A stretch of 64,000 nucleotides of DNA, taken from Escherichia phage vB_EcoM-Ro157c2YLVW. The translations under genes and the position numbers were made by a program. The stretch lies in the sequence record NC_050153.1; one strand, 5' to 3'. Positions 6,391 to 45,769 of the stretch are shown one piece after another (within the stretch, counting starts at the first letter, position 1; every line of letters starts with the position of its first letter). The notes below the pieces were generated by a model that ran no database searches, was not told the DNA's origin, and saw only the letters and a program-made list of their open reading frames with translations.

Positions 6391-7002
6391 TTAATTTCCT
6401 GCTTTCAGTTGCTTAAGACGGCGTTTGAGTTCGCCATTTCGGGCCTTTTCGTTATTGAGTCGGCCTGTCTCCTTATCCAGCTTCGCCCGCAAATCAGTGA
6501 TCTGCTGTTGATTGAAAGACACCGAGTTCTGCGCTGATTTATAAGCGGCAACCACCTGAGCATTCCGCTGTTTTGCCTCTTGCAGGCGCTGAAAGTTGGA
6601 TTTTACTGCCGGTTTCTTGTCTACCGGATTGGCAACACGTTTCGCTTTGGCGATCAGTGATTTCTGGAATTTTGCGGAGTTTTTGCGGGCCGCTTGCCCC
6701 ATGACGGTACCAAGCGTCTTGATATCCGGCGACTGAGCGTTAGGAATAGCTTTTCCATTCAGCCTCACAGACGATATATCGCCAGTATCGTTTACCTGTA
6801 TGGCAAGAATTTGTCCGTCGTTAAGAACCAGCTTTGCGGTTTTAACTTTAACGCCATCTTTCGTTGTTGCGCGGTTGCTGGAGTCAACCTCAATTACCGT
6901 AACACCGGTTTTATTGATCGCCGCGATAAGGGATTTCAGCCCCTTTTCATTAACCTGGTCAAAATCGACCGTTGCATACTTATTTTTCGTCATCTGACAC
7001 AT
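6391..7002 (-). CDS. hdf: Hdf-like protein (homolog of DarA fragment)
   Basis: 203-aa ORF; internal segment ...AARKNSAKFQKSL... is paralogous to DarA residues around ...AEKNSAKFQRAQ... Confidence 0.55.
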   Translation of the reverse strand: MCQMTKNKYATVDFDQVNEKGLKSLIAAINKTGVTVIEVDSSNRATTKDGVKVKTAKLVLNDGQILAIQVNDTGDISSVRLNGKAIPNAQSPDIKTLGTVMGQAARKNSAKFQKSLIAKAKRVANPVDKKPAVKSNFQRLQEAKQRNAQVVAAYKSAQNSVSFNQQQITDLRAKLDKETGRLNNEKARNGELKRRLKQLKAGN

Positions 7003-7423
7003 CCTGTGCGAGATTTATTACGTAACTTCTGCGGATTTGCTGAGTAACAGGGAAAATCCGATACAACGGGTTAATGAACGAGTCGCCATGCGTAACCATG
7101 ACGTTGAAATGCCACAGTCGCTCTCCTTTACCCATATATTCAGTGGGTATGTACAACCATTCACTGTTTTCGCCCTGTTCAGCCGACGTCAAACAACGTT
7201 GTTCGCCTTCAATCACTGTCGTCGGCTTCTGAACATCGCGGATCCAATATCTGACTGTTGCGCCGCGCAAAAACGGGAATTTAGACCGGTATTTGAACGG
7301 CACCCGGATGAAACCCGGTTTAATTTCCACATCACCAAGTTCTAAATGCGTGATGTCCTTGCGTTTTAGCAAATAGCGATCGGCTAAGGCTAACGCAAGA
7401 ACGCATACACCCCAGCCAATCAT
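6980..7423 (-). CDS. LydB-like protein (putative antiholin/lysis regulator)
   Basis: 147-aa ORF immediately downstream of and overlapping the holin gene; position-based call. Confidence 0.45.
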   Translation of the reverse strand: MIGWGVCVLALALADRYLLKRKDITHLELGDVEIKPGFIRVPFKYRSKFPFLRGATVRYWIRDVQKPTTVIEGEQRCLTSAEQGENSEWLYIPTEYMGKGERLWHFNVMVTHGDSFINPLYRIFPVTQQIRRSYVINLAQDVSDDEK

Positions 7424-7749
7424 TTCCCGCCTCCCTTTTTCACCAAACTTGTAAGAACATTCAGAATGCTATCGATATTCACTCGTTTCATCCCTGAAAT
7501 CACCTCATGACCGTTATTGCTGGCTATCGTTACCATTAAGTACGTAATTGATAACTCCCAGCCCTCGTGTTGCCCCAATAGGTACGCCACCGCGCCAGCT
7601 GTCACTGCAACAAAGATCTCCGTAACCAATCCCAACAAATTGCCAGACTGGCGACCGTCTCGGACATCCATCAGGAACGTGCCTATCCCACCAATTACTG
7701 AAAGCAGGAGCGCAATAGCAACTGGAGCTAATTCCTGTGTGTCAAGCAC
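7420..7749 (-). CDS. lydA: holin (LydA-like), three predicted transmembrane segments
   Basis: 109-aa ORF, GTG start with GGAGGG RBS; hydrophobic stretches LAPVAIALLLSVIGGIGTFLM, IFVAVTAGAVAYLLG, LSITYLMVTIA; charged C-terminus. Confidence 0.6.
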   Translation of the reverse strand: MLDTQELAPVAIALLLSVIGGIGTFLMDVRDGRQSGNLLGLVTEIFVAVTAGAVAYLLGQHEGWELSITYLMVTIASNNGHEVISGMKRVNIDSILNVLTSLVKKGGGK

Positions 7750-8018
7750 AAGTTCCCTCCTACGTTGTCAGGAGGTAATGGTATGCAAAGTAACTTCTCA
7801 ACCGGTCATGCAAAGACAACAAGCGGAAAAAGAAAAGCAAAGCCTGCTACAACTCGTCAGGGATAAAACTCAGCTCTGGGACTCACAGTTACGGCTAGGC
7901 ATTATTTCCGTTCAGGGTAAACAAAAATTAACCGAGTGGATTCTCTATGCGCAGAAAGTCGAATCCACGGATACCTCCATCCTTCCAGTAACGTTTCCCG
8001 AAAAGCCGGAATGAGGAA

Positions 8019-35493: not shown

Positions 35494-35527
35494 ATCAATA
35501 CCACTGCTTGATGAGAACCGCGCAAAT

Positions 35528-35785
35528 GTTGACTATGCGCGAAGGTTAATGTGAATAGTTGACTATGCGCGATGTGACTACAGTCAAAAGTTGACTGTAG
35601 TCGATTTAACTCCACCAAAGATCGACTATGTAAGATATTGTCGGGAGAAACGTTGACTATACGCGATGAAATGACCCTAAAAGCCATCTCAATAGCGACT
35701 TGCAGAATATTGACGCCAGCAAAAATCCACCAGCGTCAACGAATGTCGCCTATAGTCAACTTCTCGCTATCGCATATAGTCAATA
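35528..35785. repeat. incA-like iteron array (RepA-binding copy-control locus)
   Basis: At least 8 copies of a ~15-19-bp iteron with core GTTGACTATGCGCGA / TCGCATATAGTCAA in both orientations. Confidence 0.7.
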
Positions 35786-36670
35786 TTATGGATTGCGCTT
35801 ATGGATCTGGAAGCCGATTTTCCTGCCGTTTTTTATCTCTGAAAATTTAAGATATTCAATAGATTCCAAATCTTTCATGGCTTTTCTGATAACGCTATTT
35901 TGCACGCTAACGGATGATTTGAGATTAAGCCTCGCTCTAAGGCGCTCAATGCTGACAGGTGCAGGGTTGGCGGGTAGAGCCTCAAAGAATGTATACAGTA
36001 CCTTGGCCGTCTCTTTGCGCCCGAGCTTATCCAGCATCTTCAGCTTCAGGATTCGCTTATAGTCAACATAGTAAAGTTCAGATAGCTGTTTCTGCGGCTG
36101 GATCTCAATAACATCAAGCTCGGTATTCAGGCTGCTATATGCCAACAAGTTGACGTTAATGTTATTGAGATGACCTTTTGCCGCCGGGAAGCGGAATTTG
36201 ACAACTGTCTGCTGAATGCGTGTCAGAGAGTCATCAATACTTTTACGGAACGCCTTTGAAAGGCGCTTACGTGGATAGCCGCATCGATCGGCAAACTCGG
36301 AGAATGGCAGGGTGATGATACCGTCATCATCAGGTGCGTAGTCAAACAACGCGGAGGTTATGCCCACCCACACCTTAAAATCAGTATCCATATCCAGGCG
36401 TGGACCATGAATTTCAATTCCCTCATAGCCTTCCTGCTCAACAATTTTGAGGCTTGATAGTTCTTCGGTTGCGTTCGTTGTGTTTGTAGTAACTGACGAT
36501 CCGCGACGTAGTGCCACATTGGTAGATTTTAAGGTTGGCACAAACACACCTAAGCGCAACAAAGCAATGGGTTGTATAGTGCTATTGTTATTGGGTTTCA
36601 GGCTGTGGATTTCTCCTGTATTTCCTGCAACTTCTTCAACGCTAAGGAAGCCTTTATTTTCTTCCAGCAT
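35786..36670 (-). CDS. repA: plasmid replication initiator RepA (iteron-binding)
   Basis: RepA-like sequence (...GPRLDMDTDFKVWVGI...); start assigned to the ATG at 36670 with GGAG RBS (track ORF extends to 36727); flanked by iterons on both sides. Confidence 0.8.
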   Translation of the reverse strand: MLEENKGFLSVEEVAGNTGEIHSLKPNNNSTIQPIALLRLGVFVPTLKSTNVALRRGSSVTTNTTNATEELSSLKIVEQEGYEGIEIHGPRLDMDTDFKVWVGITSALFDYAPDDDGIITLPFSEFADRCGYPRKRLSKAFRKSIDDSLTRIQQTVVKFRFPAAKGHLNNINVNLLAYSSLNTELDVIEIQPQKQLSELYYVDYKRILKLKMLDKLGRKETAKVLYTFFEALPANPAPVSIERLRARLNLKSSVSVQNSVIRKAMKDLESIEYLKFSEIKNGRKIGFQIHKRNP

Positions 36671-36747
36671 CGTGGTTTCTCCATATGTGGCGCGGCCTGG
36701 CGTCATCTGGATTGCAGTTATCAACAACTGTGAATAGTCAGGCTCTA

Positions 36748-36851
36748 AAATCGCGTACAGTCAATGTTTCTGTCGCATATAGTCAACAATAAATCGCGTG
36801 CAGTCAACAATAAATCGTGCACAGTCAACATAAAATCGCGTATAGTCAATG
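36748..36851. repeat. incC-like iteron array (5 direct repeats) in the repA promoter/origin
   Basis: Five ~19-bp repeats AAATCGCGTACAGTCAATG / TGTCGCATATAGTCAACAA / AAATCGCGTGCAGTCAACAA / AAATCGTGCACAGTCAACAT / AAATCGCGTATAGTCAATGT. Confidence 0.75.
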
Positions 36852-36859
36852 TTGATCCC

Positions 36860-36965
36860 ATTTCAGGCCAGAAATGGCGCGGCTTACAGCGATCCGGGAT
36901 CTTCTTTGGATCTTCCTGGGTTCTCTTTAGGATCTGTTTATTGGATCTATGCTGTGGATAAGTTG
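36860..36965. other. plasmid origin (oriR-like): GATC cluster and DnaA box
   Basis: Five GATC sites within ~70 bp (36890-36947) and a perfect DnaA box TTATCCACA (complement of 36953-36961). Confidence 0.65.
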
Positions 36966-37003: not shown

Positions 37004-37396
37004 TTATTCTACGCTTTCGATAAGAAGACCATGTTCATAACATTTAAGCTCATCGCCTTCGTACAGGAATTGGTATCCAATACCACCATTTTCATGGACA
37101 TTAGGGAATAACTCATAACTCACTGAAGAGCAAATCACACCAATGCAGCGATCAACGCCTTCTCGTTCTTCAGTGCTGAAAAAATCCTCTTCGGTAAGAA
37201 CATGAGTACATTGCTCATCAGCATAGGTCGGAAATACATGCTCGATGCAATCCGGGTGTTTTAAACCAAGCTGATCGGCAAGCTCGAAAGCATGACGGTA
37301 TTGTTCAGATCCTGGCTTGCCAACAGTGATGTGCTCAATTTTGTAGATTGAAGTCGCTTTGTTGATAGTTTGCTTTACTGTTACTTTATCAGACAT
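37004..37396 (-). CDS. hypothetical protein
   Basis: 130-aa ORF, Cys/His-containing; no family recognised. Confidence 0.45.
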   Translation of the reverse strand: MSDKVTVKQTINKATSIYKIEHITVGKPGSEQYRHAFELADQLGLKHPDCIEHVFPTYADEQCTHVLTEEDFFSTEEREGVDRCIGVICSSVSYELFPNVHENGGIGYQFLYEGDELKCYEHGLLIESVE

Positions 37397-37407
37397 AAAA
37401 ATCCCTT

Positions 37408-37740
37408 TTAGTTACCGCTGATAGCGCGGTTGTAATCATTAACGTTGCGATTCTTCCTGTTAATCCCCATCAGCATCGTTTCTGTATCGAGGATATACGC
37501 TGGCAGATCATCAAAATATTCACTGCTAAACTCTGGCATCCTGCACATAAACGCACTTTTGGGGGCAGGGTGGTTAACCTTTGTCGGCGTCGGCGTTAAA
37601 TTCGCTGATCGACTCCCGGAGCAACCGCTGAGTGTCAGCAGGAATGCGCTGGCGAACATTACCCGCCGCAACCAGTTGTTTCTGAACTTCAGCTTTTCGT
37701 TCCATTTGCCTGTCAGCATATTTGGCTTGTTCTGATTCAT
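37408..37740 (-). CDS. lipoprotein (lipobox LTLSGC), o-spanin-like; overlaps the upstream gene out of frame
   Basis: Signal peptide with lipobox ...AFLLTLSG|C; ORF starts inside and extends beyond the 37574-37996 gene in another frame. Confidence 0.5.
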   Translation of the reverse strand: MNQNKPNMLTGKWNEKLKFRNNWLRRVMFASAFLLTLSGCSGSRSANLTPTPTKVNHPAPKSAFMCRMPEFSSEYFDDLPAYILDTETMLMGINRKNRNVNDYNRAISGN

Positions 37741-37996
37741 TTTTCACTTCCTGGCTGTGAAAATGTTGCTCTGCTTTGTTCATCGTCTCAATGGTCTGGT
37801 TAAGATCCATTATTGACTTATCACGTTCCTTAACAGCCTGATCAAGACTGCCAATTTTCTCCATGGCTTGCTTTAGCTGATGACGTTCCCATGCAAACCC
37901 AGCACCAACAAGTGCGCAAATCAGAACAAGAACACCAGTAGCAGCAAGTTTCTCCTTCAAAGACAAAGCTGTTTTTAACGTAGAAAAGAATGACAT
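37574..37996 (-). CDS. i-spanin-like protein (N-terminal TM helix plus periplasmic coiled coil)
   Basis: Start MSFFSTLK with AGGAGG RBS; TM segment ATGVLVLICALVGAGFAW then charged coiled-coil region. Confidence 0.5.
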   Translation of the reverse strand: MSFFSTLKTALSLKEKLAATGVLVLICALVGAGFAWERHQLKQAMEKIGSLDQAVKERDKSIMDLNQTIETMNKAEQHFHSQEVKNESEQAKYADRQMERKAEVQKQLVAAGNVRQRIPADTQRLLRESISEFNADADKG

Positions 37997-38035
37997 GTCT
38001 TCCTCCTGAAGAAAAATTATCAATGAAGTCCTTTG

Positions 38036-38881
38036 TTACCGTGCCGCTTTGTTTAATTCATCAAGAACAGAATCAGGAACCAAAGCGGCGACTGCGCTGG
38101 CTGTGCTGGCCTTATTTGCTGATGCTTCCGCAAGCGCGGTACCGATAGCATGGTTATAAGCAGTTATGGCTACGTTGGCGCTTTCATTCGCTCGTTCATA
38201 CTGCTGTTGTAACGCAGTTGTGGGTGCTGTTGTCTGGTTGAAAACAACCCCAAACTGTTCAGTTGCTACTTTCAGAGATTCAATTTGCTCTTCTGTTAGT
38301 GCTGGTGGGGGAGTGGCAGTGCCGCCGCCTGAACCAGAGCCTGACGAGCTTTCTGAGCCAGTGTTAAGGGCCTGGTTAATCTCCCCCATTGCAGCGACTA
38401 AACTTGATGTATTAAGCGCGTTAACAGCGTCCTCAAGCGATTTAGTAATATTCACATCACCAATGGCAATAGAGATCGGCAGTTCTGAAACTTCTCGCTC
38501 ATTAGCACGGCAGTAAACATCCCAACCAATATCGAGTTGAAGCAGCATTGACAGATCTGCATAACCAGCCAACAGGTCCGCGTGCTTAGTTGCCAGTTCT
38601 CCAATGTTCGTTAAGCCGGTTGTGGTTGTTCTGATCGTTGAAACATAGCTGGTAATAGTGTCGGGATAGACAATTGTATCCAGAATTAATCCGGTCAATT
38701 CTTCTGCAAGCAGTTTTGCTGTGTTAGCACTGTTTCGTGCCGATGTTATGGCACCAGGTGTTTTCATCCCACCGGCGGCGGCCAATTTTTTATATGCGGA
38801 TAACTGGTAGTCTTTTTCCAGCATGATATCTCCTAACTTACCTGAACCAGGCCGTCTCCGGACGCTACGGTAGATCCGCAT
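38036..38881 (-). CDS. hypothetical protein (Thr/Ser/Ala-rich)
   Basis: 281-aa ORF. Confidence 0.45.
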   Translation of the reverse strand: MRIYRSVRRRPGSGKLGDIMLEKDYQLSAYKKLAAAGGMKTPGAITSARNSANTAKLLAEELTGLILDTIVYPDTITSYVSTIRTTTTGLTNIGELATKHADLLAGYADLSMLLQLDIGWDVYCRANEREVSELPISIAIGDVNITKSLEDAVNALNTSSLVAAMGEINQALNTGSESSSGSGSGGGTATPPPALTEEQIESLKVATEQFGVVFNQTTAPTTALQQQYERANESANVAITAYNHAIGTALAEASANKASTASAVAALVPDSVLDELNKAAR

Positions 38882-39117
38882 GAAACAGGGTCACCAACGC
38901 ATACGATCCCTTTACCATTGACGGTAAACCATGCCCTGGTTGATATAGCTTGCCCACCGTGCGTACTGTTTCCATCGGTATGCTGTGCATATTGCTTACC
39001 ATCAACTAACACTTCGACTCCGTTGACTTTAAGTAGTGGTTCACTCTCTACAGGAGGCCTGGATGGGAATCCTCCGTGCCCCGAACAAATGCTGTCTTTT
39101 GTTGCAATGCTTGCCAC
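38833..39117 (-). CDS. PAAR-like spike-tip protein candidate
   Basis: 94-aa ORF (GTG start); Gly-rich pattern with ...VNGKGIVCVGDPVSCGSTVASGDGLVQVS and ICSGHGG, resembling PAAR repeats. Confidence 0.45.
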   Translation of the reverse strand: MASIATKDSICSGHGGFPSRPPVESEPLLKVNGVEVLVDGKQYAQHTDGNSTHGGQAISTRAWFTVNGKGIVCVGDPVSCGSTVASGDGLVQVS

Positions 39118-39198
39118 GCCATCACCAATTATTTGCTCTGATTTTCGTTATTTTAACTTAGGTTATTTGTGGTCTGTATGGCGTTTACTTATCGCAAA

Positions 39199-39215
39199 AT
39201 TGCTCTAATAAATAT
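39199..39215 (+). promoter_or_regulatory. repressor operator-like site (ATTGCTCTAATAAATAT)
   Basis: 16/17 match to the recurring motif, upstream of the uhr-rdgC-dmt operon. Confidence 0.55.
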
Positions 39216-39286
39216 TGTTTTTTATGTCGTATTTTCGGTACCATTCAGCCATCGCCCTTCAATGGGCATTTGTTTGGAGTCGTCAG

Positions 39287-45532: not shown

Positions 45533-45769
45533 ATGCAGAACAATCCGAACAAATGTCGAACGCTATGGGTGCGGTTATATATTTATGCCGTCCTCTGTTT
45601 GATTGTGTCACTGGTTCTGTATGTTTGGCTTTTGCCAAATATGATCTCATCTAACAGCACAATACTTGTATTGTTGGGAGTCCTTCTCGCGCTCATTTAC
45701 CCGGCTTTCGCAGTAGTCTTTTTTCGTGAAAAAACCAGGAAATTAATTAATGAAAAAAACGTTGATTAG
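45533..45769 (+). CDS. small membrane protein (two TM helices)
   Basis: 78-aa ORF upstream of and overlapping the SPFH lipoprotein gene. Confidence 0.5.
   Translation: MQNNPNKCRTLWVRLYIYAVLCLIVSLVLYVWLLPNMISSNSTILVLLGVLLALIYPAFAVVFFREKTRKLINEKNVD

Follow-up and report, generated by a model that had tools for sequence, protein, structure and literature searches.

The two overlapping genes at positions 37408-37996 of the 64-kb window (that is, the whole stretch of DNA analysed) are, judged by sequence identity, the ppfA and mlp genes of phage P1, carried here by a P1-like phage-plasmid. Very probably, they encode an overlapped two-component spanin that would act on the outer membrane, PpfA being the candidate inner-membrane component (i-spanin) and Mlp the candidate outer-membrane lipoprotein (o-spanin). 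The pair and its spanin reading are already known, from the literature and from a curated database, and little is added here beyond published knowledge. The case suggests that a genuine overlapped spanin pair can be recovered by reading the raw sequence. It also gives a concrete example of a known annotation failure, in which the o-spanin is shortened to 46 aa and the i-spanin is left 'hypothetical'.

The 801 bases around the pair (37300-38100) are 98.8% identical to P1 (NC_005856, 63246-64046), and for phage RCS47 the figure is 99.4%. Taken singly, the genes have a DNA identity to P1 of 99.3% (ppfA) and 98.2% (mlp). Three amino-acid changes separate the products from the P1 reference in SpaninDB, namely PpfA I45M, Mlp S7N and Mlp V32A. 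Over 20 kb, the window matches 95-kb E. coli plasmids such as NZ_CP027443.1 at 99.7% identity, and in RefSeq/PGAP records of nearly identical plasmids PpfA is a 'hypothetical protein'. A published survey that covered 77 P1-like phage-plasmids places both mlp and ppfA in a set of 21 extremely conserved genes.

In the P1 GenBank record, ppfA stands for 'possible periplasmic function', and mlp is noted as 'possibly involved in regulation of lysis'. Summer 2007, as cited in Bednarek 2022 (PMC9025707), picked out ppfA and mlp as the P1 equivalents of Rz/Rz1 from their predicted features. Bednarek 2022 also describes the two P1 genes as partly overlapping and their operon as unlinked from the other lysis genes; the labels are swapped in that paper, PpfA being the i-spanin and Mlp the o-spanin. 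In SpaninDB (Kongari 2018 Table S1), P1 gp064/gp063 have the architecture 'ovl' and constitute a family of their own, 'P1'. The i-spanin gp064 is listed there with 140 aa, of which 36 N-terminal residues include the transmembrane domain (TMD) and 104 are periplasmic, with 0 periplasmic Cys; the o-spanin gp063 has 110 aa, a 39-aa signal, a mature part of 71 aa and 1 periplasmic Cys. The database remarks on gp063 are 'Too long signal sequence', no Prosite hit, and a LipoP cleavage at position 39. The overlapped i-spanin/o-spanin arrangement proposed in a preliminary description of this DNA therefore matches the published interpretation of P1 (PMC9025707; 'ovl' in SpaninDB), in which the function is likewise a predicted one.

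Anatomy of the two predicted proteins

The elements of the pair, with the evidence for each in brackets, are as follows.

37574-37996, minus strand: ppfA, i-spanin candidate, 140 aa (open reading frame, hydropathy, PHROG match, P1 identity, SpaninDB)
38002-38007, minus strand: ppfA Shine-Dalgarno sequence AGGAGG, 5-nt spacer (sequence; SpaninDB records the same site)
37892-37948, minus strand: codons of the predicted PpfA transmembrane helix, residues 17-35 (Kyte-Doolittle maximum; SpaninDB)
37408-37740, minus strand: mlp, o-spanin candidate, 110-aa precursor (open reading frame, lipobox, PHROG match, P2 LysC match, relatives, SpaninDB)
37747-37752, minus strand: mlp Shine-Dalgarno sequence AGGAAG, within ppfA codons Q82-E83-V84 (sequence)
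37621-37632, minus strand: Mlp lipobox codons L37-S38-G39-C40 (sequence; same position in relatives)
37543-37545, minus strand: Mlp Cys66 codon, the only free periplasmic Cys of the pair (invariant in four relatives; aligned with a P2 LysC Cys)
37574-37740, minus strand: dual-coding overlap of 167 nt (PpfA residues 86-140 and the stop; Mlp residues 1-55 as well as two bases of codon 56)

The preliminary description gave no strand; both genes are on the minus one. Its reading of ppfA as a gene for a transmembrane helix preceded by an AGGAGG ribosome-binding site is borne out: the gene starts with an ATG at 37996, and residues 17-35 of the product (LAATGVLVLICALVGAGFA) are its sole strongly hydrophobic segment, with a mean Kyte-Doolittle value of 2.35 over 19 residues. 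Three lysines (K8, K14 and K16) stand on the N side of this segment, and 104 hydrophilic residues, many of them E, Q, A or K, follow it; no Cys is present in the periplasmic part. PpfA thus displays the features by which Summer 2007 and Kongari 2018 define an i-spanin: one N-terminal TMD with N-in/C-out signals, and then a periplasmic domain.

Of the periplasmic coiled coil claimed to follow the helix, the helical character was recovered at the level of prediction. An AlphaFold2 model of only moderate confidence (mean pLDDT 72; input alignment of 15 sequences) places residues 13-110 in one helix and 120-139 in another, with a break at 111-119 (AAGNVRQRIP) between them, which supports a helical periplasmic domain. 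Within it, residues 45-72 carry L, I, V, M or F at seven of the eight heptad a/d positions, a count reached by 0.6% of shuffles. That the periplasmic helix may form a coiled coil is a reasonable inference.

For mlp, the start codon is the ATG at 37740, 6 nt downstream of AGGAAG. Two later starts were considered and rejected: Met8 has no Shine-Dalgarno sequence and is not conserved, and a start at Met28 would leave a signal peptide of 12 residues without a basic n-region. Translated from 37740, the precursor has a predicted signal peptide of 39 aa with a long basic n-region, a lipobox LTLSG|C at residues 35-40 in which Cys40 is followed by Ser41 (position +2), and a predicted mature part of 71 aa that contains 6 Pro and one more Cys, C66. 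This highly basic signal peptide of 39 residues is conserved. A six-frame scan for the succession of Met, basic, hydrophobic and lipobox elements returned 3 candidates in 64 kb, compared to a mean of 0.4 per shuffled window. Mlp thus shows the features looked for in an o-spanin: a predicted signal peptidase II signal, a lipobox, and no Asp at +2. The length of the signal peptide is nonetheless unusual, and counts against the spanin reading.

At least one periplasmic Cys is found in 507 of 528 two-component spanin systems (Kongari 2018); in the PpfA/Mlp pair it is supplied by Mlp Cys66. This residue is a candidate for a homodimer disulfide, a role proposed on the precedent of lambda Rz1 C29 (Kongari 2018).

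Coding in both frames of the overlap

The mlp frame is +1 relative to ppfA and goes on for another 166 nt after the ppfA stop. As the preliminary description had it, a lipoprotein gene with the lipobox LTLSGC lies in another frame of ppfA and runs past its stop codon. Its term 'embedded' does not hold: with 167 nt shared and 166 nt outside, the architecture is of the overlapped class, not the embedded one.

Could the +1 open reading frame be a mere chance occurrence, ppfA being the sole real gene? The PGAP annotation would agree with this, since in place of the full mlp frame it has no more than a 46-aa remnant that begins at Met65 and lacks the lipobox. The question was addressed with diverged loci. 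A protein search revealed PpfA homologues of about 60% identity on P1-like contigs of about 90 kb from Cronobacter, Klebsiella aerogenes and Salmonella, and four loci from these contigs, at 59 to 64% PpfA identity, made up the comparative set. The +1 frame is open in all four, with a product of 109-110 aa from a conserved start. The mlp ATG is found in each of them at most one codon away from its place in the window, preceded by AGGAGG. The lipobox occupies the same position (LSAC, LNAC, LNGC and LSAC), and the second cysteine, Cys66, is kept in all four.

The conservation of the two products points the same way. Mature Mlp is 75-79% identical to its counterparts in the four relatives, that is, better conserved than PpfA. 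In the 166 nt past the ppfA stop, substitutions relative to the relatives fall on the three mlp codon positions in numbers of about 9, 6.5 and 25 of 54; such an excess at the third position, as read from these alignments, indicates that purifying selection acts on the mlp frame. Divergence from the relatives amounts to about 21% in the dual-coding overlap, compared to about 39% in the part that is ppfA only. At the codons that accommodate the mlp Shine-Dalgarno sequence and those around them, Q82, E83 and K85 of PpfA are invariant in the alignment, and V84 is Ala in some relatives. We conclude from the retention of the open frame, start, Shine-Dalgarno sequence, lipobox and second Cys at 59-64% PpfA identity that, on this comparative evidence, the mlp +1 frame is a real gene. 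The independent homology of Mlp to P2 LysC, presented below, also speaks against a fortuitous frame; the comparative data of the four relatives refute that explanation, and we give it practically no credence.

Genomic setting, expression and alternative roles

The surroundings of the pair, and the lysis genes to which it was compared, are the following.

37004-39117, minus strand: tightly packed putative operon upfC-upfB-ppfA-mlp-upfA (open reading frames, P1 annotation, similar RNA-seq kinetics)
37004-37396, minus strand: upfA, the only gene between mlp and the origin
36746-36961, minus strand: plasmid origin, with iterons, a GATC cluster and a DnaA box (found de novo)
35786-36670, minus strand: repA, with Rep3 domains and a second iteron array downstream of the gene
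7420-7749, minus strand: lydA holin, 109 aa, two TMD (position as P1 lydA)
6980-7423, minus strand: lydB antiholin, 147 aa (position as P1 lydB)
-22 box starting at 7796: late promoter LPdar, AAGTTACTT-N4-TACCAT, a perfect motif upstream of lydA/lydB

Spacing within the gene cluster is tight: upfC and upfB overlap by 49 nt, upfB and ppfA are separated by 39 nt, and mlp and upfA by 11 nt. The five genes, upfC-upfB-ppfA-mlp-upfA, also have similar late kinetics in P1vir RNA-seq (PMC8201110), and we infer that they form one operon. The P1 record has the same gene order, adjoining oriR and repA. In the window, the operon keeps company with a plasmid replicon and a PAAR-like tail-tip gene. The location next to a plasmid origin, which had been pointed out beforehand, proved to be correct. 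The origin has five iterons of about 21 bp (36746-36853) and a perfect DnaA box, TTATCCACA, at 36953-36961; about 450 bp separate it from the ppfA/mlp pair. No blastn hit was obtained in the window for P1 oriR, repA or incA, which indicates that it carries a different replicon allele.

The preliminary description had also placed the holin at 7420-7749, far from the pair. The open reading frame there is LydA-like, it is followed by LydB, and the two are about 30 kb away from ppfA/mlp. The pair is thus outside any lysis cassette, the location that is usual for spanins without being required of them, and this has to be counted against the spanin reading. With an approximate Lyz sequence as a probe, no Lyz gene was found in the 64-kb window.

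Published expression data place the pair among the late genes. In P1vir RNA-seq (PMC8201110 Table S1), the log fold change from 10 to 30 min goes from 5.6 to 11.2 for ppfA, from 4.1 to 10.5 for mlp and from 4.1 to 11.1 for upfB; the corresponding values are 6.1 and 11.3 for lyz, and 5.2 and 11.8 for lydA. Early genes are already high at 10 min (hrdC 9.4, uhr 8.6, parA 9.5). The transcription of ppfA/mlp in P1vir therefore has late kinetics, like that of lyz and lydA. A canonical Lpa late promoter was then sought with the motif AAGTTACTT-N4-TANNNT, derived from LPdar and LPlyz, allowing at most two mismatches. None was found upstream of upfC, upfB or ppfA, while the same search did return LPdar and further sites resembling late promoters in other parts of the window. 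Only sigma-70 promoters are predicted for the operon in the P1 record; these, P1ppfA and P2ppfA, were not relied on, as they are weak and their hexamers are altered in this window.

These observations bear on a different role for the lipoprotein. Mlp could be a lysogenic-conversion or exclusion lipoprotein, made by the prophage to alter the envelope, as are lambda Bor, phi80 Cor and T5 Llp; PpfA would then be an unrelated membrane protein, and the overlap incidental. The plasmid-maintenance neighbourhood of the operon, beside repA and the origin, would suit such a protein, as would the lack of an Lpa late promoter motif and a P1 annotation whose predicted promoters are all of the sigma-70 type. 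So would the result of a genome-wide CRISPRi screen, in which both genes were non-essential for plaques (efficiency of plating 0.24/0.19 for mlp and 1.3/1.2 for ppfA). This last result is weak evidence against a spanin role, however, because classical spanin mutants also show mild laboratory phenotypes, and the annotated sigma-70 promoters are the weak, mutated ones mentioned above. Furthermore, the rise of the transcripts from a low level at 10 min to a high one at 30 min resembles that of the late lysis genes and differs from the pattern of parA, hrdC and uhr; a partner of the i-spanin type and the overlap itself are co-conserved in the diverged relatives; and Mlp is homologous to LysC of the P2 lysis cassette. 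We consider a conversion or exclusion function quite unlikely.

As no Lpa motif was found upstream, the regulation of the pair may possibly be independent of Lpa. One can imagine a pair that escapes Lpa control and is pre-loaded in the envelope of the lysogen, or an Mlp whose maturation is delayed by its long n-region, with possibly a second role in the plasmid-prophage; such a scheme is speculative, and we regard it as very improbable.

Proposed mechanism and comparison with characterised spanins

If ppfA and mlp do encode a spanin, its action can be modelled on the lambda paradigm, for which we follow the summary in Kongari 2018. PpfA would insert into the inner membrane through its one helix, N-in/C-out, and would send a largely helical domain of about 100 residues into the periplasm, where two such domains would probably pair as a coiled coil. 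Mlp would be exported, cleaved by signal peptidase II and lipidated on Cys40, and the Lol system would place it in the outer membrane, on the inner leaflet, a destination predicted because residue +2 is Ser; it would probably dimerise through Cys66. Binding between the C-terminal regions of the two proteins would create a bridge across the periplasm, held in the peptidoglycan mesh. Late in infection, LydA/LydB would act as the trigger and the SAR endolysin Lyz would degrade the wall. The freed PpfA-Mlp complexes might then collapse, so that the inner and outer membranes fuse and the last barrier to release disappears. The processing of Mlp, the formation of the complex, its disulfide linkage and the membrane fusion are all proposed here by analogy.

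Among P1-like phages, the pair is essentially uniform: P1, P7, RCS47, SJ46 and JL22 have the same genes, with 98-100% protein identity, the same operon, the 167-nt overlap and the Shine-Dalgarno sites. The window differs from P1 in its neighbouring replicon, whose repA and iterons are of an allele other than the IncY replicon of P1. In a tblastn search of 50,697 phage records with PpfA and Mlp, matches were found in P1-like phages only, and consequently no homologue in a classical lysis cassette offers an argument of guilt by association.

More distant relationships were sought with profile collections. PpfA matches phrog_89, 'Rz-like spanin' (E = 1.2e-25), which P2 LysB matches too. Mlp matches phrog_30284, also 'Rz-like spanin' (E = 2e-77), and phrog_456 (E = 4e-5); P2 LysC matches the same two, in the reverse order of strength. 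By BLASTP, Mlp is 37% identical to P2 LysC over 68 aa (E = 5e-8), and in this alignment both Cys, the acylated one of the lipobox and the second one, line up, as do a PTP motif and a PK pair. PpfA was not significantly similar to P2 LysB by BLASTP or by hhalign, either as a single sequence or as a 15-sequence profile, so that the link between the two i-spanins comes down to common PHROG membership. Against the NCBIfam LysB/LysC models (TIGR03495, NF038368), PpfA scored 19 bits, below the cut-off of 92.75, and Mlp 14.3, below 27. Judging by these scores, PpfA and Mlp are not members of the LysB/LysC equivalogs and form a separate family, one that appears to be remotely related to P2 LysB/LysC through the o-spanin.

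The P2 pair has the same architecture, its o-spanin gene beginning within the i-spanin gene, in the +1 frame, and passing its stop, and the sizes are comparable (141/96 aa for LysB/LysC, 140/110 aa for PpfA/Mlp). Mlp differs from LysC by its signal peptide of 39 aa. Unlike the unlinked P1 pair, moreover, the P2 genes follow endolysin K and lysA inside a lysis cassette.

The P2 comparison raises an older view, according to which such pairs modulate the timing of lysis and do not disrupt the outer membrane. The GenBank note on P2 lysB/lysC reads 'nonessential; affects timing of lysis', that on P1 mlp is similar, and the lysis system of P1 is unusually complex, with several holin-like proteins (PMC9025707). 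However, the topology signals, for a type II inner-membrane protein and an outer-membrane lipoprotein, are those of spanins, action on the outer membrane has been demonstrated for the lambda, T4 and T1 equivalents (Kongari 2018), and a spanin defect looks like a timing effect in shaken cultures. A role limited to timing is in our opinion unlikely, and a spanin acting on the outer membrane is the reading that we retain.

The comparison with known Rz/Rz1 equivalents, suggested at the outset as a check, gave a divided answer: the o-spanin is connected to P2 LysC, and both proteins to spanin PHROGs, while the similarity of PpfA to P2 LysB and to lambda Rz is not significant. For lambda Rz, the BLASTP value with PpfA is 0.26, and the match of Mlp to lambda Rz1 is marginal (E = 0.007) and confined to the signal peptide. 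Neither protein matched the PHROGs of lambda Rz/Rz1 (phrog_13/phrog_3198), those matched being other spanin PHROGs, and at E = 0.01 Pfam gave no Rz/Rz1-type or otherwise meaningful family for either. The weakness of the sequence links to characterised i-spanins is a further point against the spanin reading. The two systems also differ in that lambda Rz1 is wholly embedded in Rz, in a pair that ends the S-R-Rz cassette, whereas the P1 genes are overlapped, and in the number of periplasmic Cys, two in lambda Rz and zero in PpfA. In their general plan, they are alike: lambda Rz/Rz1 associate a type II inner-membrane helical protein having a hinge with an outer-membrane lipoprotein, small and Pro-rich, whose gene is in the +1 frame, the P1 pair is predicted by its sequence to do the same, and both have a periplasmic Cys available for homodimer disulfides.

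Labels and annotation of the spanin pair

The transmembrane domain is found in PpfA and the lipobox in Mlp, and because of this the labels used by Bednarek et al. 2022 (PMC9025707), in which ppfA is named the o-spanin and mlp the i-spanin, are the opposite of what the sequences show. Database annotation of the pair is also incomplete. A 45-52 aa ORF is all that automatic callers report for the o-spanin, be it in the PGAP annotation of a 99.7% identical plasmid (NZ_CP027443.1), in MH422554 and related records, or in three loci of diverged P1-like relatives (L003, L005, L006). The corresponding remnant of Mlp, which starts at Met65 in the window, has neither signal peptide nor lipobox; PpfA is a 'hypothetical protein' in the PGAP annotation. 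The two segments concerned are:

37624-37740 (-), Mlp signal peptide, 39 residues
37408-37548 (-), shortened o-spanin call, starting at Met65

The signal peptide has a basic n-region of about 25 residues, coded wholly inside the ppfA/mlp overlap, and is flagged 'Too long signal sequence' in SpaninDB, the spanin catalogue of Kongari 2018. Of the mlp start signals, diverged relatives keep only those of the far-upstream start, with its SD. Another lipoprotein-type signal, MKKTLISAAIILGSLCLTG|C, was observed at 45750(+), on a 275-aa ORF that is probably the P1 plp gene.

First genes and promoters of the operon

Two genes precede ppfA in the operon upfC-upfB-ppfA-mlp-upfA:

38833-39117 (-), upfC, first gene, PAAR-motif protein (Pfam E 8.5e-6, phrog_281)
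38036-38881 (-), upfB, second gene, no known function

In the P1 annotation, upfC is described as similar to T4 gp5.4. The lowest conservation among the operon genes was that of upfB, which is 92.8% identical to P1 upfB.

RNA-seq kinetics of the operon are late, despite the absence of a motif for Lpa, the P1 late-promoter system: no Lpa-type late promoter (AAGTTACTT-N4-TANNNT) was found upstream of it, at 39118-39230(-) or 38038-38283(-). Before upfC there is no more than a half-motif, AAGTTAAAA, and one match of the form TTAAAA-17-AATAAT (39156-39128). The P1 record has predicted sigma-70 promoters; these are weak, and their sequences are changed in the window.

The variable region adjoining the operon

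Between mlp and repA there is a variable slot (37004-37396 in the window, 3600-3959 in L003 and 3600-3953 in L005). In some relatives it holds a Gp49-like gene (PF13876), replacing upfA or alongside it (L003, L005); in the JL22 phage, a blaCTX-M-55 insertion splits upfA (PMC9603915).

The replicon of the window (35524-36961) is of a type other than the IncY type of P1, because P1 oriR, repA and incA had no blastn match in the window. A GATC cluster is present in this region, together with the following elements:

35524-35787 and 36746-36853, iteron sets of the window's own
36953-36961, DnaA box

The variable replicon module directly adjoins the conserved spanin operon. Among P1-like phage-plasmids, repA-upfA is one of eight highly variable regions (PMC9603915).
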